Of a stretch of 31,902 bases of DNA, positions 3,197 to 31,902 are shown piece by piece. How positions within the stretch are numbered: the first letter of the stretch is position 1; each line of letters begins with the position of its first letter. The position numbers were made by a program, and so were the translations under genes. Under the pieces are notes generated by a model. That model was not told where the DNA came from and did no database searches. It was given only the letters and a program-made list of their open reading frames with translations. Source of the DNA: a virus (Duplodnaviria; Heunggongvirae; Uroviricota; Caudoviricetes); the IMG/VR virus record IMGVR_UViG_2925939204_000002; one strand, given 5' to 3'.

Positions 3197-4390
3197 ATGG
3201 CCACTAACTACCATCACGGTGTAACCGTCACGGAAACCACCGACCTTAGCACGATGATCACCGACATTGATTCGGCGGTGATCGGCGTTGTCTGCACCGC
3301 TGATGATGCGGACGAAACAGCGTTCCCGCTGGATACCCCTGTACTGATTACCCGCGTGGCTAACATGCTGGGCAAGGCAGGTAAAACCGGCACCCTGTTT
3401 ACCACCCTGAAAGCGATTTCAGACCAGACCAGCCCGCAAACCATTGTGATCCGCGTTGCTGATGCTGCAAATATCGAACCGCCAGAAGGCGGCACCGCAC
3501 AGACCCAGGATCAACTGGTTATTGGCGGCACCGATGCAAACGGGCGCTTTACCGGCATGTACGCGCTGCTGTCTGCCGAAATGCGCGTAGGTGTGCGCCC
3601 GCGTGTACTGGCTGTTCCAGGGCTTGATACGGAAGCGGTAGCCGCACAACTCGGCGTCATTGCCGAAAAGCTGCGCGCGTTTGCTTACGTGGCAGCGAAC
3701 GGTTGCAACACAATCGCCGAAGTGAAGGAATACCGCGAGCAATTCTCCCAGCGTGAAATGATGGTTATCTGGCCTAATTTCATCTGCTACGACACCAACG
3801 CCGGGGCTAATGCCACCGTGCCCGTGGGTGCCCATGCTGTTGGGATGCGAGCCAAAATCGACGCAACGCAGGGCTGGCATAAAACCATTTCCAACGTGCC
3901 CGTTAATAACGTGCTGGGGATGGATCGGGATATCTATTTCACGTTGCAGGGCACCGATACCGACGCCGACGAACTGAACGCAGCAGGCGTTACCACGCTG
4001 ATCAAGCAGGACGGCTACCGCATCTGGGGATCGCGTACCTGCGACGCGGAAACGTATATCTTCGAAAGCTATACCCGAACCGCGCAGATAGTTGCGGATA
4101 CCGTCGCCGAAGCCCATTTCGCCTATGTTGATAAACCGCTTACCCCGTCGCTGGTAAAGGACATTGTGGACGGCATCAATAAGAAGCTGACCTCATACGT
4201 GACGGCTGGCAAGCTGCTGGGCGCCCGCTGCTGGTATGACCCGGAACCGAATACCTCGGAAACCCTGCGCAATGGTCAACTGACCATTAAGTACAACTAC
4301 ACCCCTGTTCCACCGCTGGAAAATCTCAGCCTGGTACAGGAGTTCACCGACGAATATTTCGCTACGTTTTCCAGCGCAGTGAATAACTAA
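3197..4390 (+). CDS. Contractile tail sheath protein (P2 gpFI family)
   Basis: 397-aa product, size and N-terminus MATNYHHGVTVTETTDLS consistent with gpFI; followed by tube gene. Confidence 0.9.
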   Translation: MATNYHHGVTVTETTDLSTMITDIDSAVIGVVCTADDADETAFPLDTPVLITRVANMLGKAGKTGTLFTTLKAISDQTSPQTIVIRVADAANIEPPEGGTAQTQDQLVIGGTDANGRFTGMYALLSAEMRVGVRPRVLAVPGLDTEAVAAQLGVIAEKLRAFAYVAANGCNTIAEVKEYREQFSQREMMVIWPNFICYDTNAGANATVPVGAHAVGMRAKIDATQGWHKTISNVPVNNVLGMDRDIYFTLQGTDTDADELNAAGVTTLIKQDGYRIWGSRTCDAETYIFESYTRTAQIVADTVAEAHFAYVDKPLTPSLVKDIVDGINKKLTSYVTAGKLLGARCWYDPEPNTSETLRNGQLTIKYNYTPVPPLENLSLVQEFTDEYFATFSSAVNN

Positions 4391-24542: not shown

Positions 24543-24570
24543 AATGGCGCCTCATGGCGCCATTGCTTTT
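24543..24570. terminator. Bidirectional hairpin terminator between the convergent 370-aa gene and gene A
   Basis: aatggcgcc-tcat-ggcgccatt perfect 9-bp stem followed by gctttt. Confidence 0.5.
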
Positions 24571-24576
24571 GGCTAA

Positions 24577-26946
24577 TTATATCTCATTTAATAAATGGCC
24601 CTTAAACGCTGCCTTCATCCTGTTCACAAGGTCGCTTGTCTTTTTCTTCGCTGCCATCACCTGTGACGGCAGCTTATCCAGCCCGGATGCGGCGCGGTTG
24701 CGCGATACCAACCGCCCGTCCTGCACGGTCATAACAAGATCACCGCACGCCACTGACGCACCGGCCATCATCGATCTGACCATTCCGGCGCTTGCATCAA
24801 TCCCACGTAGCGCCAGCAGTTCACTGATCTGCTGCTCTTTGACTGATAGCCCTGCTTCCTCTTCCCATTCCGGTGGCCGCGTTTTCCGCTTGGCGCGTAC
24901 ATCGTCACTTAATCGCTGCGCCAGTTCCCGCTTTTCTTGCCGTGAAAGAGCATCAAAATTCACCGTCTCGCCCACTTCGTGATCGGCATGTTCAAGACCG
25001 TCAGCACCTGTTGCGGGATCCCGCGTACAGTTATTGACAGAACTCCGAGGGGCGGCGCTGCCGCCTGAAAAACCAACGTCAACGGCCACACCGTCAGCGC
25101 TCTGGCGCTTCGGCACGATTTTGTATTTAGTGGTGCGGGTGAAGATCAAAGAGTCATTGCCCGTAATCGGGCAATAGATACCGGTGATTCGCTGGACGTT
25201 ATCGCCGTAGGCGTTGCCGTTTTCAGTGGTTTCATAATTCAGACGGATGCGCAGCTTATCGCGCTCAACCAACGGGCCACCCTGGGCTAATACGTAGTTA
25301 TCCCATTCGCCACCGTTAGCGGCCTGCCGGGCGGTTTCCAGTTCAGGGTGTAACACCAGTTCGCGATCGCCCAGGCGGCGAAGTTCGCGATATACCGTGA
25401 CCGGTGCACCGCCGATCTGCTGAAACTGACGAATAGCCCAGCGCGATGCCCACGCGCTAACGCGGAGTGACATTTCTTTCAGGTCTTCCCCGGTTTCGTC
25501 GTCCTTCTCACCATCCAGCGCGAAGCCGTCGATATTCTTCGAAATGTATTTCGCTATGTAGCCGGTTGCGCTGCCGTGGGCATCATCGATCGGCACAACC
25601 TGAAAGCGGTTTTCCTGCGCTCCCGGTTCGTTGCCGTCTTCTTTCAGGGCATATTTACGGAAGATTTCGCGCGCCTGCTCGACGCATTCCGGGCGCATAA
25701 AAAGAAGTAAATGCCAGTGTGGCGTTGCATCGTGGTGCGGTTCGACCACGCGAAAACCAAAGACGCGGATCCCTTTTCTCTTCCACGCTGCGCGGGTTCT
25801 CGCCCAGACTTTGCAAAGATATTGCTGCGTCTCGCGCGGCGATGCGCCACAGTATTTATTATTGCGGCGCCCGTTATGCTGCATGGAGTGGTAACGGGAA
25901 GGTGCTGTCAGCGTGTAGAAGTCACCGGCCAGCCCTTCCAGCTTCGCCAGATCTTCAAATCCGCGCATTCTCGTCATGAGTTCGCGGCGACGGTTGGCCG
26001 GATTGGCAACACTACCGGCGACTTTATCGATCAGTGAAATGCGTTCGCCCGTGTCCTGGTCTTCCAGTTCCATAGCCTTAAGGTATTCACGGTTAGCCTT
26101 TTTTTGGGCCAACCATTCCGTAAGGCACGGGGCGCTACTGTATGGGAAAGATTTTTTCTGGACGTATCCCGCAGCGATCATCAAATGCTCACGCCACCGG
26201 GCATGGATACGGCGCAGGCGGTTTAACCACCACTGCGGTGACTCAAGGCGAAGAACCGCGCGTAACGCGTCCTCCGCTTCCAGTTCTTCATTGCAATACG
26301 CCGTCCAGCCGGGGATCGGAGTTTTCAGATGCACCGCCAGCGACGCAATACGGCCATAGCCAGAAAGCGCCGCGAACTCAGGATCTCCGGTGCGTGCCAA
26401 TTGGTGATCGGACTCGCGTATAAACTCGCTCGTAAAGATATCGGCAAGCGTATAAGCCAGTCTTTTTAACTCTTTCTTCCCTGCCCAGAGCATACGGAAC
26501 AGCTGATCGCGGATTGGCAGCAGAATGCCGGGCATCACAGTGTCAGGCTGGTAAACACTGTTCACACTATCAATTCGCGTTAATACGTGGCGCTCAAAGG
26601 TATTAACCAGCCAGTGATCTGCCGCTTTGCGGTCTTTCGCGTCCAGTGCATCCAGCTTCGCGGCAAAGTGGCGGCGGATATACTGCGGAAGTGAAGCCAG
26701 ACGGCGACGCAGCAGCTTGCTGCGCTCCGGCTTTTCGTCTTCCGCTACCAGTTCACTGAACGCAATATGCTTACGCGTGCCGTCCGGCGTGAGATAGTCG
26801 AAACCATCCAGCCCCGGCGCTACATCAACGCCAATAGGCTGGTATGGTTTGTTTCCCCCATAAGCGTAAGGGATAGCATTGTCAGTGCTACCCGGATACG
26901 GTGGAGGTGGAGAAGGGGCGCGACGGCCACGGGTTTCCGTGGTCAT
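24577..26946 (-). CDS. Rolling-circle replication initiator A (P2 gpA family, HUH endonuclease)
   Basis: 789-aa product with PHWHLLLF (HUH motif) and TGYIAKYISK (catalytic Tyr region). Confidence 0.9.
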   Translation of the reverse strand: MTTETRGRRAPSPPPPYPGSTDNAIPYAYGGNKPYQPIGVDVAPGLDGFDYLTPDGTRKHIAFSELVAEDEKPERSKLLRRRLASLPQYIRRHFAAKLDALDAKDRKAADHWLVNTFERHVLTRIDSVNSVYQPDTVMPGILLPIRDQLFRMLWAGKKELKRLAYTLADIFTSEFIRESDHQLARTGDPEFAALSGYGRIASLAVHLKTPIPGWTAYCNEELEAEDALRAVLRLESPQWWLNRLRRIHARWREHLMIAAGYVQKKSFPYSSAPCLTEWLAQKKANREYLKAMELEDQDTGERISLIDKVAGSVANPANRRRELMTRMRGFEDLAKLEGLAGDFYTLTAPSRYHSMQHNGRRNNKYCGASPRETQQYLCKVWARTRAAWKRKGIRVFGFRVVEPHHDATPHWHLLLFMRPECVEQAREIFRKYALKEDGNEPGAQENRFQVVPIDDAHGSATGYIAKYISKNIDGFALDGEKDDETGEDLKEMSLRVSAWASRWAIRQFQQIGGAPVTVYRELRRLGDRELVLHPELETARQAANGGEWDNYVLAQGGPLVERDKLRIRLNYETTENGNAYGDNVQRITGIYCPITGNDSLIFTRTTKYKIVPKRQSADGVAVDVGFSGGSAAPRSSVNNCTRDPATGADGLEHADHEVGETVNFDALSRQEKRELAQRLSDDVRAKRKTRPPEWEEEAGLSVKEQQISELLALRGIDASAGMVRSMMAGASVACGDLVMTVQDGRLVSRNRAASGLDKLPSQVMAAKKKTSDLVNRMKAAFKGHLLNEI

Positions 26947-27122
26947 ATTTGAACTACATCCCCTACTTTAACGGCTTTGGCTTCCTCTTCTGATTTCTTC
27001 AGAATTGTGGTTATTGACTCCCTTCCATAAGCTGTTACTTTCGCCTCAACCAACCAATACGGCACAATCTCGCCGCAACTCACGCTTATGATTTCAACGA
27101 TCCAGGCGTCTATAAGATTCAT
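26943..27122 (-). CDS. Small hypothetical protein (59 aa) translationally coupled between dam and A
   Basis: Hand translation MNLIDAWIVEIISVSCGEIVPYWLVEAKVTAYGRESITTILKKSEEEAKAVKVGDVVQI; its ATG overlaps the dam stop and its TGA overlaps the A start codon (ATGA). Below the ORF-track size cut-off. Confidence 0.35.
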   Translation of the reverse strand: MNLIDAWIVEIISVSCGEIVPYWLVEAKVTAYGRESITTILKKSEEEAKAVKVGDVVQI

Positions 27123-28093
27123 TAAAAAGCCTCCTGATCGTCAAACTCGCCCGCCGCAACCATCGCGTTGTAAGTCGCATCACCCATCACGGCGCCACAA
27201 TCAGGGCAACCGCCGCCATAACGCCCGCAGCAGTCGCAGACAGGCAGCACGCCGATCACTTCTTTGGCCTTCTGCCGGTTGTCTTTGTTGGTGCTGACGG
27301 AACGTTGCACGCTGATTTCGTGCATCTTGAAGGGCTGATAAATCGCGCGGGTGGCTTCGGTGTCGCTGTTGGAAATGACGACCTTCACGCCATGCTTACG
27401 GTTAACTTCCAGCAGTGCCTGGACTAACTGGCGGTGGTTGTCTTCCGTGAATGGTTCGGTGTGGTATTGGGTAAAATCGGCTGTTTTGCTTTCAGGCAGG
27501 TAAGGCGGATCGCAGTAAACGAGAACATCGCCACCCGTGACGACCTGTAGAGAACGCTGGAACGGCGCGCAAAGAAATATTGCCTTTGTATCGTTGGCCT
27601 TTTCGGCAAACAGGCATATTTCATTTTCAGGAAAGTAGACGCTCTTATACTTGCCAAACGGCACGTTAAAGCCGGTCTTCCGGCTGTATCGGCATAAGCC
27701 GTTATAGCCGTGGCGATTCAGATACAGGAATTGAGCAGCGCGCATAATGCACGCCATTTCAGCGACATAACGCAACCCACCGCTTTTTACCGTACCCACC
27801 TGCTTATTGAACGCGGCGCGGACTTCGTTGTATCCCTGCGGGCTGTTCTTACTGTTGAACAGTTCGCGGGCCGCATCGATCACTAAGTCCGGGTAACGAG
27901 TGACTTCCCGATACAGGTTAATAAGGTCCGGGTTGATATCAGCCAGCACATAGCGGCGGTATTCAGTCGCCAGAAATACCGATGCTCCGCCTACGAACGG
28001 TTCGATCAGGCAGTCGGCTTTAGGAAGATGCGGCAGCAGGTCAGGGAGGACACGGGTTTTACCCCCTGCCCATTTGATGAACGGGCGGATCAT
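27122..28093 (-). CDS. DNA adenine (N6) methyltransferase, Dam family, with Cys-rich C-terminal extension
   Basis: 323-aa product; FVGGASVF AdoMet-binding region and DPPY catalytic motif; C-terminal CDCCGRYGGGCPDCG cluster. Confidence 0.85.
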   Translation of the reverse strand: MIRPFIKWAGGKTRVLPDLLPHLPKADCLIEPFVGGASVFLATEYRRYVLADINPDLINLYREVTRYPDLVIDAARELFNSKNSPQGYNEVRAAFNKQVGTVKSGGLRYVAEMACIMRAAQFLYLNRHGYNGLCRYSRKTGFNVPFGKYKSVYFPENEICLFAEKANDTKAIFLCAPFQRSLQVVTGGDVLVYCDPPYLPESKTADFTQYHTEPFTEDNHRQLVQALLEVNRKHGVKVVISNSDTEATRAIYQPFKMHEISVQRSVSTNKDNRQKAKEVIGVLPVCDCCGRYGGGCPDCGAVMGDATYNAMVAAGEFDDQEAF

Positions 28094-28094
28094 T

Positions 28095-28307
28095 TTACAG
28101 GACTCCGTAAGGGGAAGATGGAACAGCCGGACGCAGCAACGCCGTGGTAAGGCGCTGGCGCATGTCGTCGATAAAGCAGGAAACAGAGGGATCGTCAGAA
28201 GAAAGGGTTAACTCACCATCGCGGCGGGTTTTAATCGTCAGCCCTTCACGCTCAACAGCAGGTAAGAGAACGTGCAGGATGAAGTTATATTGATCGCGTT
28301 TAGTCAT
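28095..28307 (-). CDS. Hypothetical early protein (70 aa)
   Basis: ORF coupled to the dam start codon; no recognisable motif. Confidence 0.4.
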   Translation of the reverse strand: MTKRDQYNFILHVLLPAVEREGLTIKTRRDGELTLSSDDPSVSCFIDDMRQRLTTALLRPAVPSSPYGVL

Positions 28308-28349
28308 GATTCGAAGCCTCAGAAATTGCCGGGTTTCCCCGGTAATCTG

Positions 28350-28532
28350 TTACTGGTGATCCGCTGATTGGTTAGCTGACTTGATGGCAGGCCAGACAAG
28401 GAGAAGAAGAGCGCCAACGAAGAAGGCGTCGCCAATCACCGAAAGCAGGTAGCTGGTGAAATCCACTGCTACGACCATGAAGGCCAACAGCAGGGCCAGC
28501 GCCGGACGTAGTGAATCCAGCACGTGCAGCAT
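28350..28532 (-). CDS. Small hydrophobic protein (60 aa), predicted two transmembrane segments
   Basis: ALALLLAFMVVAVDF and FFVGALLLLVWPAI hydrophobic stretches; ATG overlaps the stop of the upstream TerB-like gene. Confidence 0.4.
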   Translation of the reverse strand: MLHVLDSLRPALALLLAFMVVAVDFTSYLLSVIGDAFFVGALLLLVWPAIKSANQSADHQ

Positions 28533-28966
28533 CAGAGATAATCCTCAACACGCAGCCCCAGACGGCGCCCGACCTCTTCCAGCACCTTCTGTTCTTCTGG
28601 TTCGATCTGGCCGTCCGCTTCGGCGATAGTCAGCATGTTGACGAAGACTTCTTCGGCTTCTTTCGGATCGTTTTTGATGTCGTCGATTTCGCGCAAAATG
28701 TTCATGCGGCCAACGCGGAAGCCAGCTTCAAGCTGTTCCGTATAGCGGTTGATGGTGGATGTGATCTCATTGCCGAAATGCGCAAGGCGCGGGTTAGAGC
28801 GGATAAGCTGATCCAGCTTGCTGGTTTCTTCTTTTTCGATCTCGCCATCGGCGGCAGATACCAAAAGGCAACCGCCGACAATAGCTTCCATCAGATCGCG
28901 ATTTTCTACTTTCTTAAGTTCAACTTTTGCCGCTGCTACTTTTTTTCCAAACAGTTTATTAAACAT
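28532..28966 (-). CDS. TerB-like domain protein (about 144 aa)
   Basis: Internal ATG at 28966 with AAGGA RBS; duplicated A(A/E)ADG(E/Q)IE(K/P)EE motifs typical of TerB-fold proteins; AT-rich codon usage. Confidence 0.55.
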   Translation of the reverse strand: MFNKLFGKKVAAAKVELKKVENRDLMEAIVGGCLLVSAADGEIEKEETSKLDQLIRSNPRLAHFGNEITSTINRYTEQLEAGFRVGRMNILREIDDIKNDPKEAEEVFVNMLTIAEADGQIEPEEQKVLEEVGRRLGLRVEDYL

Positions 28967-29059
28967 GCTATTTATCCTTTTTAGGATGAGTGAAAGCGCC
29001 ATCACTTAATTAAGTGACGACAGTGAAGACTGTTTTTAATTACTATTTAACTGGCGTTG

Positions 29060-29290
29060 TTAGCCGATTAAATTTCTCAAAGAATTAACAAAGTTAAAAA
29101 GTAATCCTTTGTTTATCTTCTTCATATAAACAAAGGGCTTACTCATTCCCTTAATAAATTGAACCTTGCCAGGCTCAGGTTTAAAGAATTTCCCGTCTGG
29201 TGTTTCCAGCCAGCCGCGTGAGTTTTTGAAGTGTGTAACCTGGCACCCGTGCTTAAGCAGGCTTGCCAGTGATGGGCCTTCATCGTGCAT
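29060..29290 (-). CDS. Hypothetical protein (about 76 aa), AT-rich
   Basis: Start MHDEGPSLASLLKHGCQVTHFKN at ATG 29290, overlapping the stop of the upstream ORF; no recognisable motif. Confidence 0.4.
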   Translation of the reverse strand: MHDEGPSLASLLKHGCQVTHFKNSRGWLETPDGKFFKPEPGKVQFIKGMSKPFVYMKKINKGLLFNFVNSLRNLIG

Positions 29291-29531
29291 TACTGCCCCC
29301 TTGCTTATACATCTGATCAACCGTGCGCATGGCTTCCGCTAAAGCAAAGTCACGCCCGTAATAATCGCCATTACTGGAAATACGATAAGAGTGCTTAAAC
29401 GTAAATGGATTACGCGGGCACTTTTGAATCGTGAAGCCACGATATAAATATGAGTGACGACTTAACTGTATTAATTGCACAGCCACAAAAGCCCCCTCAC
29501 ATTCCCAATTTAAGCAATTCACCATCAACAT
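29280..29531 (-). CDS. Hypothetical protein (83 aa)
   Basis: ORF in operon context, overlapping neighbours at both ends; no recognisable motif. Confidence 0.35.
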   Translation of the reverse strand: MLMVNCLNWECEGAFVAVQLIQLSRHSYLYRGFTIQKCPRNPFTFKHSYRISSNGDYYGRDFALAEAMRTVDQMYKQGGSNAR

Positions 29532-29700
29532 GGCGCGCCACGTCTTTGGTTATTTTCTTAATCAGCTTTTTATCCCTGATAATAAACTCGCCGCTATTGG
29601 TGCGAATCATGAATCCCGTTTGCATATTTTTTAAATGGGTGTCCAGAATATTGTTACATTCACGCACCCGGTTTTCGTGGTTGGCTGTTTTCTGGCTCAT
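29497..29700 (-). CDS. Hypothetical protein (67 aa) directly downstream of cox
   Basis: ATG at 29700 with GAGGT RBS 7 nt upstream; sequence MSQKTANHENRVRECNNILDTHLKN; occupies the P2 orf78 position. Confidence 0.4.
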   Translation of the reverse strand: MSQKTANHENRVRECNNILDTHLKNMQTGFMIRTNSGEFIIRDKKLIKKITKDVARHVDGELLKLGM

Positions 29701-29710
29701 CGCGATAACC

Positions 29711-29992
29711 TCAAAGACCGATCCACAACAACCACGCGTCGCGCTGTTCTCTCGGACGGTTGTAATAGGCGTCACGCATTGCGCGGTTGAACTCAGGAAT
29801 ATAGATCCAGTTCTCAGCGCGGGCGCCCAGGCTTTCCGGGTTCTTCCACGGGATGATCGGCAACTTACCGTCTTCAATCATGCTCTTAACCGTGGCGGGC
29901 TTCTTACCGATCAATTCGGCAAATTTTGGGTATGGAACCGCGTCAACAGCGTGACGCACTTCAATGAACCCCTCTAACTCTTTGTCTGTCAT
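29711..29992 (-). CDS. cox: Cox-like early regulator / excision directionality factor
   Basis: 93-aa product; IPYPKFAELIGKKPATVKSMIEDGKLPII ... WIYIPEFN ... RDAWLLWIGL aligns with P2 Cox; divergent from C. Confidence 0.8.
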   Translation of the reverse strand: MTDKELEGFIEVRHAVDAVPYPKFAELIGKKPATVKSMIEDGKLPIIPWKNPESLGARAENWIYIPEFNRAMRDAYYNRPREQRDAWLLWIGL

Positions 29993-30082
29993 AGAATTAC
30001 CTCTAATTGATTGTTGCCGGGATTTTTTCTCACGCCCCGGCGCGTGTTACCCTTGTAGCTCTCACACTAATAGGGCAAAAAA

Positions 30083-30322
30083 ATGGACGAATTTAAGGGC
30101 GTTTTTCCTCTACCGATTACTGACCTTAAAGGTCTTAAATTCGACGCCAAGACAGGCGAATTACAACTCGATGTAGTGCTTCCGCACCCTGCTGGTGATA
30201 TTCCTCTGCGATTGCAGTTTTCAGCAGGGGTAACACAATCACTTGCATTGAACTTAGCGAGGACACACAAATTTCTGGACGAGCAACTCGAAGGAACACC
30301 AGTGACAAACGTTCTGCAATAA
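30083..30322 (+). CDS. Hypothetical 79-aa ORF inside the cox-C switch region
   Basis: ORF MDEFKGVFPLPITDLKGLKFDAKTGELQLDVVLPHPAGDIPLRLQF; no family recognised; RBS weak, so coding status uncertain. Confidence 0.35.
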   Translation: MDEFKGVFPLPITDLKGLKFDAKTGELQLDVVLPHPAGDIPLRLQFSAGVTQSLALNLARTHKFLDEQLEGTPVTNVLQ

Positions 30323-30552
30323 CCCGCAGAAAGCCACGTTTTTGACTCCCCTTAATCTGGCGGAATCTCATATGTAAGGCTCCGCCCGATTCTTTCTCTC
30401 CCTCATGTTTCATAACCATTTGTGCTAATCTCCGCATTGGCGCTAGGCGCTTATTTCGGCTTATAACTGCCTAAATTGGCGGTTATGAGTCTGGTTCAAT
30501 TGGTTCCGAGTTATGAACCAGTTGAGTGAATGCTAGATCACAAGTCGGAACC

Positions 30553-30852
30553 ATGTCAATGATCGTATCTGAAAAAATAAAGGCGATTCGAACGGCTGAA
30601 GGACTCAGCCAGAATCAATTTTGCAAAATCATGGAGATACCAATTAGCACCTTGAAAAAATTAGAGGGGGGATATAACGAACCTGGCTGGACAACACTGA
30701 TGAAACTCACCCAGCACCCACTATTTGAAAAGTACACGCTTTGGCTAATGACTGATAAGACCGCTCCGCAAGCTGGTCAAATCGCACCGGCTCTCGCACA
30801 CATTGGGCCAGAATCAACGGAATCAGACCTCTCCGAGAAACAAACTGGTTAA
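30553..30852 (+). CDS. Immunity repressor C (P2 C family)
   Basis: 99 aa from ATG 30553: MSMIVSEKIKAIRTAEGLSQNQ ... KYTLWLMTDKTAPQAGQIAPALAHIGP aligns along its length with P2 C; upstream int, divergent from cox. Confidence 0.8.
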   Translation: MSMIVSEKIKAIRTAEGLSQNQFCKIMEIPISTLKKLEGGYNEPGWTTLMKLTQHPLFEKYTLWLMTDKTAPQAGQIAPALAHIGPESTESDLSEKQTG

Positions 30853-30921: not shown

Positions 30922-31902
30922 ATGTCGATTAAGAAGCTCGAAGGTGGTCAATATGAAGTGGACGTATGGCCGCGCGGACGTAACGGAAAACGTATCCGCA
31001 GGCGATTTGAGAAGAAACAAGAGGCAGTTCTTTTTGAGCGTTATGTATTAGCCAACGCCGACAAAAAAGAATGGCTGGGCGCGAGCGTTGACCGCCGCAC
31101 CTTAAGCGAGTTGTTAAATACTTGGTGGCTGCTATATGGACAGACTCAGGAAAATGGCGAGATTGAAAAGCGGCATCTGAATAAAACAATCAGGGCGCTT
31201 GGTGATCCAGCCGTTAACCGACTGAACAAGCGAATGATTGCACAGCACCGTAGCCAACGGCTGGAAGACGGTATCAGCGCAGCAACGATCAACCGGGATA
31301 TTTACCGCTTGTCCGGGATGTTCAGCACGTTGATAAAGCTGGAAGAGTTCAGGAAGGAAAACCCCTGTAAGGGTCTGGAACCACTGAAAGAAGCACCGCC
31401 AGCTATGACCTACCTCGCCAAATCAGAGATCAGCAAATTGCTGGATACTCTGACCGGCGACGATCGACGCGTAGCACTGTTATGCCTAAGCACCGGCGCA
31501 CGCTGGGGCGAAGGTAGCACGCTGCGAGGCGAGCAGGTAAATCACGGGCGCGTGACGTTTCTTAAGACCAAAAACGGGAAAAAGCGCACGGTTCCGATAT
31601 CGGAAGAACTGGAGAAAGAGATCAAGACCAGCGACACTGGGCCACTGTTCAAAGTTGACTATGAAAACTTCTGCGAACGGCTCAGACAGGTTAAGCCCGA
31701 TTTACCACGCGGGCAGGCCACGCATGTGCTTCGGCATACATTTGCAAGCTGGTTCATGATGAACGGGGGGAACATTATTGCGTTACAGCAAATTCTGGGG
31801 CACGCCAGCATACAACAGACGATGGTTTATGCTCACCTTGCACCTGATTACCTGCAACACGCAGTAACGTTAAACCCTCTCGGCGGCGGGCTGGCGGTGT
31901 GA
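30922..31902 (+). CDS. int: Tyrosine site-specific integrase (P2 Int family)
   Basis: 326-aa product with catalytic region HVLRHTFASWFMMNGGNIIALQQILGHASIQQTMVYAHL (conserved His/Arg and Tyr); GGAGGG RBS; stop codon is the last triplet of the window. Confidence 0.9.
   Translation: MSIKKLEGGQYEVDVWPRGRNGKRIRRRFEKKQEAVLFERYVLANADKKEWLGASVDRRTLSELLNTWWLLYGQTQENGEIEKRHLNKTIRALGDPAVNRLNKRMIAQHRSQRLEDGISAATINRDIYRLSGMFSTLIKLEEFRKENPCKGLEPLKEAPPAMTYLAKSEISKLLDTLTGDDRRVALLCLSTGARWGEGSTLRGEQVNHGRVTFLKTKNGKKRTVPISEELEKEIKTSDTGPLFKVDYENFCERLRQVKPDLPRGQATHVLRHTFASWFMMNGGNIIALQQILGHASIQQTMVYAHLAPDYLQHAVTLNPLGGGLAV

Follow-up and report, generated by a model that had tools for sequence, protein, structure and literature searches.

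TerB domains are parts of the validated defence systems Shango (SngA), Bunzi (BnzA) and Dionysus (DinB and DinC), and in Dionysus the TerB-like protein is paired with a pore-forming membrane protein. TerB has been described as membrane-associated or amphitropic, and "membrane surveillance" was proposed for TerB-containing anti-phage systems. The D-G-x5-E acidic motifs of TerB, a point going back to Anantharaman et al. 2012, are said to bind metal. Among phage-borne TerB genes, the tciA-tciB pair has carried its name in P1 for two decades. P1 tciA, tciB and tciC were found to be non-essential by CRISPRi and dispensable for lytic growth and plaque formation (PMC10695390), and tciABC is missing from nearly half of one P1-like phage-plasmid subgroup (PMC9603915). 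The TerB gene is also retained by virulent phages (PMC8421299; PMC3728262). Here, we analyzed a stretch of viral DNA of 31,902 nucleotides, referred to as the window, for which a preliminary description had pointed out a block of small early genes including a TerB-like one. Its remark that the TerB fold is linked to phage resistance agrees with the literature on Shango, Bunzi and Dionysus.

The window was shown to be a P2-like prophage (Peduoviridae, SEN4/phiT5282H-type). The early operon lies on the minus strand and is read in the order cox, orf67, DUF4761 gene, fil, tciA, tciB, orf70, dam and A (Table 1), cox being its first recognized gene. The preliminary description had placed five small ORFs of 67, 83, 76, about 144 and 60 aa between cox and dam, and all five are indeed found there on the minus strand. 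Profile searches, which it had proposed for each protein, gave a significant Pfam or PHROG match in every case (phrog_29148, DUF4761, Fil, TerB and DUF3927); NCBIfam matches also back the identity of the tciA-tciB pair. Since all five ORFs are kept in related phages, they are far beyond chance. A 142-aa ORF on the plus strand (24554-24982) was discarded as spurious, as nearly its whole length is antisense inside gene A and it matched no family, and no RNA family reached the Rfam threshold anywhere in the window.

Table 1. Features of the early region, with positions in the window
Feature	Position	Strand	Evidence or remarks
Promoter-like site TTGACA-18-TAGCAT	30530..30559	-	Consensus scan, 10/12 matches; at C/cox divergence as in P2
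cox (93 aa)	29711..29992	-	PF10743 Phage_Cox 2.1e-23; 48% identity with P2 Cox
orf67, small conserved early gene, 67 aa	29497..29700	-	phrog_29148 1.5e-47, full length
DUF4761 gene	29280..29531 (83-aa ORF from ATG 29531)	-	PF15958 1.3e-10; phrog_2492 5.8e-29
fil, Fil-family protein, 76 aa	29060..29290	-	PF10893 Phage_186_Fil 3.3e-21; phrog_816 "cell division inhibitor"
11-bp hairpin with palindrome TCACTTAATTAAGTGA	28997..29022	-	AT-rich spacer 5' of tciA; RNA fold -15.3 kcal/mol
Variable segment of ~650 bp, tciA-tciB	28334..28982 (boundaries approximate)	-	Three-way DNA alignment; annotated regions
tciA, TerB-family protein, 144 aa	28532..28966	-	PF05099 2.4e-14; phrog_632 5e-62
tciB, DUF3927 small membrane protein, 60 aa	28350..28532	-	PF13064 2.9e-07; phrog_1470 "TciB-like" 2e-19
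GC-rich hairpin CCGGGGAAACCCGG then CAAUUUCU	28329..28342	-	Directly 3' of tciB; RNA fold -13.3 kcal/mol, z -2.45
orf70, small conserved early gene	28095..28307	-	phrog_21140 9e-42; SEN5 copy 94% identical
dam, D12-class N6-adenine DNA methyltransferase	27122..28093	-	PF02086 1.3e-62

Searches with P2 proteins (tblastn) revealed no homologue of B, orf78, orf80-83, orf91, tin or old in the window, and the region 27000-30500 gave no hit below E = 1 for gpB, orf78 or orf80-83. Likewise, the 186 proteins cII, dhr, gp31-34, orf84, tum and orf97 had no tblastn match in the window, where the P2/186 protein set matched at C, cox and A, plus a weak match at fil only. The earlier statement that no obvious homologue of P2 B was seen here was thus confirmed. 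The view that the operon carries non-replicative accessory genes where P2 has orf78 and B was likewise correct. What did not hold is the idea of the block as one system: it is a mosaic of two different things, three small early genes conserved in the lineage and a separate tciA-tciB cassette. Nor is it uncharacterized, as had been suggested, if this is taken to mean unknown, for the pair is named in P1, has PHROG families of its own and is annotated in RefSeq in identical copies.

The genes orf67, the DUF4761 gene and fil are the conserved backbone of this phage lineage. The orf67 product shares 93-94% identity with its counterparts in SEN5 and phiT5282H. The DUF4761 gene was correctly recognized as an ORF, but its length of 83 aa was probably overestimated, and the true start is most likely GTG 29486, giving 68 aa. 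A GAGGGGG stretch stands 5' of this codon, the RefSeq annotation of an identical prophage starts the gene there (207 nt), and in the 83-aa version the family matches do not start before residue 18-21. Fil (75.1 bits against PF10893, cut-off 25) is, judged by this match, homologous to the cell-division inhibitor of phage 186, whose annotation states that overexpression blocks cell division. Its C-terminal third differs from that of SEN5 Fil, which suggests a recombination breakpoint within fil. The AT-richness formerly assigned to 28530-29500 is real for the backbone and the fil-tciA spacer (35.5-43.3% GC: orf67 41.2%, DUF4761 gene 43.3%, fil 41.1%, spacer 35.5%; window 53.3%), but does not extend to tciA (49.9%) or tciB (55.7%). 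The AT-rich stretch is therefore 28967-29700, i.e. the conserved part, and the variable part is the GC-normal tciA-tciB pair.

TciA matches PF05099 with 54.0 bits (cut-off 24.4), residues 27-143 covering profile positions 2-113 of 118. Comparison of the TciA family profile with the PDB returned TerB (2JXU, E 1.2e-12; residues 15-143 against 20-149). TciA consists of a single domain with an all-helical TerB-like fold. The duplicated motifs noticed before are AADGEIEKEE (residues 38-47) and EADGQIEPEE (residues 116-125), and within them D40, G41, E47, D118, G119 and E125 show complete or at least 90% conservation among 20-29 homologues. In a gapless alignment 131 of the 144 residues (91%) are identical to P1 TciA; identity with TerB of the ter-operon type is ~30-35%. 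Purifying selection on tciA is extreme: its dN/dS is 0.02-0.07 at dS >1, against values of 0.11-0.38 in fil and dam. Recent horizontal transfer was rejected as the source of the high TciA identity among divergent P2-like phages, dS being saturated (1-1.9), like that of the flanking genes. A Lys-rich N-terminal segment was considered as a membrane-targeting amphipathic helix and rejected; as its hydrophobic moment is not notable (0.26-0.31), the sequence gives no support for membrane association of TciA on its own. None of the PADLOC-DB v2 defence models matched TciA significantly (best PDC-S48, E 0.003 over 36 residues, and PtuA, E 0.04), and the remaining block proteins matched none.

The 60-aa protein described earlier as having two TM segments is a DUF3927 protein (30.8 bits against PF13064, cut-off 25) with two hydrophobic segments, between which D24, S31 and D35 are invariant. 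It shares 43% identity with P1 TciB, and the dN/dS of tciB is 0.10-0.25. The start of tciB overlaps the stop of tciA (ATGA), which suggests coupled translation. Of 124 loci, 122 have a small hydrophobic ORF beginning near the TciA stop; in 116 of these the two overlap by 1 or 4 nt, and in the others the spacing is -26 to +3 nt. Ninety-four of these partners are of the DUF3927 type, and 25 belong to a different 67-aa Pseudomonas family (phrog_27356) that is unrelated to DUF3927. All of the viral contigs examined (80/80) have TciA followed by TciB. In the reverse direction, for which DUF3927 genes of E. coli lambdoid prophages were sampled in two look-ups, a TerB gene always precedes the DUF3927 gene. 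A candidate natural TerB-DUF3927 fusion (P0026) turned out to be a frameshifted metagenomic read-through. The TciA-type TerB of the virulent phages PMBT3 and Cygsa01 has no small membrane protein as partner; its neighbours are nucleotide-metabolism or replication genes. TerB can consequently act alone, its benefit not necessarily falling to a lysogen.

The cassette is variably present. SEN4/5 and phiT5282H, the closest isolated phages, lack the segment, as does E. coli KMi029; SEN5, phiT5282H and KMi029 otherwise have the same gene order and cpxP integration site. Of 31 complete E. coli genomes with this backbone, 17 carry the cassette and 14 do not; between fil and orf70, relatives without it have just a short hairpin-bearing intergenic region. 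The TerB and small-protein pair is found in P2-like, P1-like and lambdoid prophages, in the last between Q, tRNAs and terminator on one side and the holin gene on the other. At ~31 prophage loci of Pseudomonas, Halomonas, Oceanisphaera and others, the TerB pair is found 3' of a CI-type repressor gene and in the same orientation, with one to several genes between cI and the pair in Pseudomonas. The operon type hosting the pair is early in P2-like, late in lambdoid and cI-proximal in Pseudomonas prophages. Taken together, these data show that tciA-tciB is a variably present two-gene cargo cassette, the same module as P1 tciA-tciB, which is present in thousands of other prophages.

The promoter-like site at the C/cox divergence is a candidate for the early promoter Pe, which would drive the whole operon. 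Between this site and tciA the consensus scan found no promoter-like site save one within orf67, and no sigma-70-like promoter was found 5' of tciA in the window, in P1 or in an E. coli lambdoid copy, by a crude scan that a weak or non-sigma-70 promoter could escape. As the scans gave no promoter-like site immediately 5' of the pair, it is apparently co-transcribed with the surrounding lytic operon. The spacer hairpin 5' of tciA is more stable than expected (z -3.6; none of 200 shuffles as stable). The TCACTTAATTAAGTGA element is conserved 5' of tciA in many P2-like loci and stands 5' of orf70 in SEN5 and phiT5282H. The hairpin was not called a terminator; it is stable but lacks a U-tract. In the Serratia-type tciA upstream region, the stretch tried folds no better than shuffles. 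The GC-rich hairpin behind tciB is weakly terminator-like, and the consensus terminator scan did not report it.

We consider it on balance probable that this P1-type cargo cassette has a membrane-proximal accessory role (exclusion or membrane surveillance). Transcribed with the lytic operon around it and translated in a coupled manner, the pair would yield a TciA that, like other TerB proteins, probably acts on the cytoplasmic side of the inner membrane. The two invariant D-G-x5-E motifs may bind a cation or another ligand, and TciB would probably serve as anchor or effector of TciA. The pair is predicted to alter envelope or ion physiology in a non-essential way, and its benefit would most plausibly be the exclusion of superinfecting phages or resistance to membrane-damaging insults. 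On this view it would reproduce, on a small scale, the Phi/PacB phenotypes known from ter operons and the TerB-containing defence systems. Several observations do not sit easily with this explanation, among them the missing PADLOC match, the solitary TerB of virulent phages and the unremarkable hydrophobic moment of the TciA N-terminus. The very low dN/dS of tciA is unusual for a sensor in a phage arms race and is more in line with a conserved host component or ion as the ligand; and the pair, for which no promoter of its own was detected, may be silent in lysogens.

A function in the lytic cycle is a serious alternative, albeit a rather unlikely one. TciA, with TciB, would here take over the host, protecting or reprogramming the infected cell and not the lysogen, for example by keeping the membrane or the proton-motive force stable, adjusting the time of lysis, arresting division together with Fil, or buffering metal or oxidative stress. 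Such a function would suit the location of the genes, which lie in lytic operons in every context without a promoter-like site directly 5' (early operon after fil, lambdoid Q-holin interval after a strong terminator, replication module of the virulent PMBT3). It would also suit the retention of the TerB gene by virulent phages (PMC8421299; PMC3728262), and the great strength of purifying selection agrees with a conserved host target. However, tciA/B/C are not needed for P1 plaques (PMC10695390) and the genes are often lost from phages that are otherwise intact. Moreover, many prophages, of Pseudomonas and others, have the pair a few genes 3' of CI and in the same direction, an arrangement compatible with lysogenic expression.

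That the cassette is a genuine tellurite (or colicin) resistance determinant, making the host tellurite-resistant as terB does in ter operons, is improbable. The sources do annotate it with "tellurite resistance", and TciA aligns end to end with canonical Klebsiella TerB. Nevertheless, identity to the ter-operon type is low (see above), none of terZ, terA, terC, terD and terE is nearby, the neighbours being cox, fil, dam and A, and terB alone is insufficient, as the authors of the PMBT3 study argue, citing Taylor 1999 (PMC8421299).

It is very doubtful that the phage TerB is an anti-defence decoy mimicking or titrating the TerB sensor of Shango, Bunzi or Dionysus. The occurrence of TerB domains in validated defence systems, and of the gene in temperate as well as virulent phages, would allow for it, but the PADLOC models of these systems show no detectable similarity, the occurrence of the gene in Enterobacterales is not known to follow theirs, and a decoy would not account for its being obligately coupled to a small membrane protein in temperate phages.

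We give hardly any credence to the earlier suggestion of a replacement replication module, substituting for P2 gpB (helicase loading) and orf78: its one attraction is the position between cox and A, where P2 has orf78-B and the window has no gpB homologue, yet the Fil, DUF4761, TerB and DUF3927 families bear no sequence or fold similarity to gpB, 186, SEN4/5 and phiT5282H also lack gpB, SEN4/5 and phiT5282H lack tciAB as well and are complete phage records, P1 tciABC is non-essential (PMC10695390), and the same pair adjoins lysis genes in lambdoid prophages; tciAB would accordingly not be a replication factor.

For the window itself, the analysis chiefly clarifies what the block consists of, namely the usual early-region content of a P2-like phage and, added to it, a copy of the cassette that P1 is known to carry; it is neither a novel system nor a replication module. 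Among the cargo modules that temperate phages of Gammaproteobacteria carry, tciA-tciB ranks with the most widespread and the most strongly constrained. Its near-obligate coupling of TerB and a tiny membrane protein, with a swapped partner in Pseudomonas, makes it a well-defined and cheap target for phenotype screens, as do the dN/dS of tciA and the presence/absence polymorphism at a fixed site. Tentatively, tciA-tciB and the Pseudomonas variant might even constitute a minimal phage-borne TerB system for membrane surveillance or exclusion, in which a highly conserved TerB sensor would be translationally coupled to an interchangeable tiny inner-membrane effector. The pair would then be a two-protein counterpart of Dionysus, Bunzi or RexAB, spread over P2-like, P1-like and lambdoid prophages in thousands of genomes and hitherto overlooked as a system. 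If exclusion or membrane surveillance proved to be its function, this would also throw light on what TerB does in Shango, Bunzi, Dionysus and ter operons.

Compared with known systems, the resemblance of tciA-tciB to lambda rexA-rexB is one of analogy only: both are two-gene prophage cargo encoding a soluble and a membrane protein, but they share no homology, and the pair of the window lies in a repressed early operon, not in the repressor operon. Shango, Bunzi and Dionysus likewise combine a TerB-type protein with membrane-embedded components. In contrast to them, tciAB has no PADLOC match, no ATPase/helicase as in Shango and no large pore-forming toxin, and is phage-borne, whereas these systems reside in chromosomal defence islands. 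The 186 early region (apl-cII-fil-dhr-tR1) also has a Fil homologue after cox/apl and a hairpin in the spacer after fil; the window, however, lacks cII and dhr homologues, and 186 lacks orf67, DUF4761, tciAB, orf70 and dam. TerB of the ter operon (terZABCDE; Klebsiella KP-TerB, PDB 2JXU) shares with TciA PF05099, a near whole-protein alignment, the paired acidic D-G-x5-E motifs and the helical fold. It differs in its neighbours terC, terD, terE and terZ, none of which adjoins tciA, and in that multi-pass TerC stands in ter where TciA-type proteins have a 50-70-aa membrane protein as partner.

The closest match is the tciA-tciB(-tciC) locus of P1/P7/D6. Here the cassette comes after fil in a P2-like early operon, while in P1 it follows tRNA genes and precedes the ban operon. 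DNA similarity (78-79%) spans tciA and stops at the tciB start, the upstream region and the rest of tciB being unmatched. The third P1 gene, tciC (35 aa), was not found by tblastn with P1 TciC in any of 36 P2-like contigs, two of which (L055 and L060) match window proteins at 96-100%; in the window, 42 nt separate tciB from the next gene, orf70. The loci agree in several points: TciA has 144 aa in both, TciB belongs to DUF3927/phrog_1470 in both, the tciA stop overlaps the tciB start in both, and in both the pair is non-core, variably present cargo.

The window is a P2-like prophage with a minus-strand early operon that runs cox, five to six small genes, dam, orf59 and A. The nearest deposited phages are the Salmonella phages SEN4 and SEN5 and the Enterobacter phage phiT5282H, all Peduoviridae, and an identical prophage segment adjoins cpxP in Escherichia coli AR_0128. 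All five small ORFs that the preliminary description had placed between cox and dam proved to be real genes, each with family matches (see table), and the two acidic motifs ascribed to its TerB-like protein are present and invariant across the family. The probable start of the DUF4761 gene is GTG 29486, for a product of 68 aa: GAGGGGG lies upstream of this codon, the RefSeq gene of the identical prophage is 207 nt long, and no family match begins before residue 18-21 of the longer reading. The small proteins might have turned out to be relatives of P2 B and orf80-83, the outcome named in advance as counting against an unusual block. Such homologues were looked for in the window and none was detectable, the absence of a P2 B homologue having been noted correctly from the start; P2 orf78 and 186 cII and dhr were likewise without a detectable homologue there.

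Features of the early region and neighbouring genes of the prophage
Feature	Coordinates	Strand	Match or description
DUF3800 protein, 370 aa	23414-24526	+	PF12686, E 1e-4
Replication endonuclease A	24577-26946	-	PF05840, 1.4e-104
Dam methyltransferase	27122-28093	-	
DUF3927 protein (tciB)	28350-28532	-	PF13064; phrog_1470 'TciB-like'
TerB-family protein (tciA)	28532-28966	-	PF05099, 54 bits vs cut-off 24.4; phrog_632 5e-62, full length
Palindrome ahead of tciA	28997-29022	-	Stable 11-bp hairpin, no U-tract
Fil-family protein	29060-29290	-	PF10893 3.3e-21; phrog_816 'cell division inhibitor'
DUF4761 protein	29280-29531	-	PF15958 1.3e-10; phrog_2492 6e-29
orf67	29497-29700	-	phrog_29148, 1.5e-47
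79-aa ORF	30083-30322	+	
Promoter-like site TTGACA-18-TAGCAT	30559-30530	-	Candidate early promoter Pe
C-type repressor	30553-30852	+	45% identity to P2 C
Integrase	30922-31902	+	

The gene order of SEN5 and phiT5282H is cox-orf67-DUF4761-fil-orf70-dam-(orf59)-A, as in the window, and their cox, orf67 and DUF4761 proteins are 93-99% identical to those of the window. The TerB and DUF3927 genes are absent from both phages, and in a three-way alignment the extra segment spans ~28334-28982. In E. coli KMi029 the same prophage type occupies the same cpxP site with the pair missing; the backbone was found in 31 of 5,426 complete E. coli genomes and the pair in 17. Differences between the Fil proteins of carriers and non-carriers are concentrated in the last third, and in non-carrier E. 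coli genomes the match to a fil-containing query ends ~110 nt before the query does. Hence, the exchange looks like replacement of a segment through recombination within fil and near orf70 rather than a clean insertion. The block had been described as accessory and largely AT-rich. At 35-43% GC, compared with a window value of 53.3%, orf67, the DUF4761 gene, fil and the spacer are AT-rich, but the TerB gene (49.9%) and the 60-aa gene (55.7%) are not. From gene order, carriers and alignments, the block is therefore a mosaic: the AT-rich genes are what this lineage conserves, and the TerB-DUF3927 pair, of ordinary base composition, is the variable part.

The spacer between C and cox is a second variable slot, since phiT5282H and SEN5 differ from the window there: in phiT5282H the stretch is missing and C lies ~100 nt from cox, and SEN5 has three different small ORFs. 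In the window, the 530 nt that separate the Pe-like promoter (30530-30559) from cox (29992) hold a 79-aa ORF antisense to the early-transcript leader, which is hypothetical protein WP_000343126 in the AR_0128 prophage and had no match in Pfam, PHROG, NCBIfam or PADLOC. Just past gene A, on the opposite strand and in the position of the P2 lysogenic-conversion genes tin and old, lies the DUF3800 gene; no PADLOC model matched its product, which the AR_0128 annotation calls a DUF3800 domain-containing protein. In the Dam methyltransferase, the Pfam domain (8-265) is followed by a C-terminal tail of ~55 aa that contains a Cys cluster (CDCC...GGCPDC). The identical dam copies of AR_0128 and KMi029 are marked 'incomplete; partial' in RefSeq, yet they give an uninterrupted 323-aa translation.

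The 144-aa TerB-like protein is 91% identical to TciA of phage P1, ungapped, and P1 TciB shares 43% identity with the 60-aa protein. The third small gene of P1, tciC, had no counterpart among 36 P2-like contigs, including two with 96-100% matches to the window proteins. Judged by profile and predicted structure, TciA is a genuine single-domain TerB: the family profile matches the solved Klebsiella TerB (2JXU; residues 15-143, E = 1.2e-12), and the AlphaFold model shows six helices with confident scores (pLDDT 93.3). TciB has a conserved V-D-F-T-S...S...D segment between two hydrophobic stretches, with D24, S31 and D35 invariant in 16 diverse members.

Loci with TciA-type TerB genes were collected from one-genome-per-species contigs (43), viral contigs (80) and a few looked-up contigs. 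Among the 124 with sufficient downstream sequence, a small hydrophobic ORF begins near the TciA stop codon in 122, the overlap being 1 nt at 85 loci and 4 nt at 31. Of the remaining two loci, one has a borderline hydrophobicity score and the other is a degraded copy. The partners belong to two unrelated families. The DUF3927 type (94 loci) occurs in Enterobacterales, Aeromonadaceae, Oceanisphaera, Photobacterium, Desulfovibrionaceae and some Pseudomonas. The Pseudomonas partner (loci L010-L033 and L048-L050), directly after the TerB gene and with the same 4-nt overlap, is a 67-aa type (65-72 aa across these loci) whose single hydrophobic segment is N-terminal and whose tail is conserved (C-x-Y-Y-G-Y-Q-T-D/E-R...V-G-C); its match is phrog_27356, with none in Pfam. 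In the reverse direction, both of two abundant E. coli DUF3927 proteins, one indexed in >4,500 assembly blocks, are directly preceded by a 143-aa TerB with a 4-nt overlap. Thus, TerB is near-obligately coupled to a small hydrophobic protein in temperate phages, and the partner family is swapped. The exceptions are the virulent phages PMBT3 and Cygsa01, whose TciA-type TerB has neither space for nor annotation of a partner. TerB homologues that are more distant (24-44% identical among the matches listed), named 'tellurite/colicin resistance protein', occur in ~800 plasmid records from E. coli and Klebsiella; the size of these plasmids (95-115 kb) and their missing mobility genes (non-mobilizable) suggest a different type of phage-plasmid.

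All 36 P2-like viral contigs and five divergent P2-like prophages (int 38-100%, A 29-99% identical) have the pair upstream of dam and A, and in 36 of these 41 loci it comes immediately after fil (exceptions L005-L007, L118, L120). P1-like contigs (44) have tRNA genes, the pair and then the ban operon. In E. coli lambdoid prophages (L138-L142, L052), the Q antiterminator, tRNAs and a strong terminator precede the pair, and a holin gene follows; here a 143-aa TerB, 48-49% identical to the TciA of the window, stands next to DUF3927, and the sRNA STnc100 (Rfam RF02076, 148.7 bits) lies just downstream of the pair. The position between Q and the holin gene is where Stx phages carry stx. At ~31 prophage loci in Pseudomonas, Halomonas, Oceanisphaera, Aeromonadaceae and Desulfovibrio, the pair has the same orientation as a CI-type HTH+S24 repressor gene and lies a few genes downstream of it, with replication genes in the opposite direction. 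In an apparent phage-plasmid with ParM/StbA, an 89.7-kb metagenomic contig (L051), 1.1 kb devoid of genes precedes a TerB-DUF3927 pair, and two Tad2-like (anti-Thoeris family) genes and a 2,295-aa SNF2-type helicase flank it. No sigma-70-like promoter was found directly upstream of the pair in three contexts by a crude scan that a weak promoter could escape, and the simplest reading is that Pe drives the window pair together with the rest of the early genes. In the window, tciB is followed by a GC hairpin. The post-fil spacer contains several TCACT repeats around the perfect palindrome TCACTTAATTAAGTGA, an element that recurs in L001 (~4020-4045) and many P2-like loci and is conserved whether tciA or orf70 comes next; a T run follows it by a few bases in SEN5 and phiT5282H, not in the window. 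This element may regulate the early operon or serve as an attenuator in it.

TciA proteins are 86-95% identical among phages whose A proteins share 29-65%. Recent transfer as the cause is ruled out by a dS of 1-1.9 between the window and other P2-like copies, at which tciA dN/dS is only 0.02-0.07; the identity therefore reflects very strong constraint. Values for tciB (0.10-0.25), fil (0.12-0.38) and dam (0.11-0.27) are given for comparison. Because the dS of tciA resembles that of the flanking genes, the sequences suggest that the pair is a long-standing resident of this lineage, and relatives without it may be deletions or replacements.

P1 tciA, tciB and tciC were non-essential in a genome-wide CRISPRi screen (PMC10695390). 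The tciABC genes form one of eight variable regions in P1-like phage-plasmids, nearly half of one subgroup has lost them, and that survey left a link to phage inhibition open (PMC9603915); our literature search found no paper testing tciAB or DUF3927. TerB domains are components of the validated defence systems Shango and Bunzi and of Dionysus, which combines a TerB-like protein with a pore-forming membrane protein; the respective papers describe TerB as membrane-associated or amphitropic and propose 'membrane surveillance'. Beyond the established gene identities, mosaic structure, tciA constraint and dispensability in P1, we propose that TciA and TciB would act jointly at the inner membrane, with the paired acidic motifs of TciA binding an ion or ligand and a non-essential change in envelope physiology as the outcome. 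The benefit would most likely be exclusion of other phages or protection from membrane-damaging agents. The preliminary observation and its interpretation each hold in part. The main rival, favoured by the operon contexts of the pair and by the virulent phages that also carry the gene, is a role of tciAB within the phage's own lytic cycle. Tellurite resistance proper is less likely; for lone terB genes of virulent phages it was deemed unlikely or unassessable (PMC8421299; PMC3728262). We rate a replication role, proposed earlier as a replacement accessory module, as less likely too, and the same applies to an anti-defence decoy. The interest of the window itself is modest, and the tciAB class would lend itself to a simple phenotype screen. 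In phage P1 and in the window alike, the start codon of the second gene overlaps the stop codon of the first, and the window pair is a P2-like prophage copy of a known phage cargo module, carried alongside ordinary small early genes.
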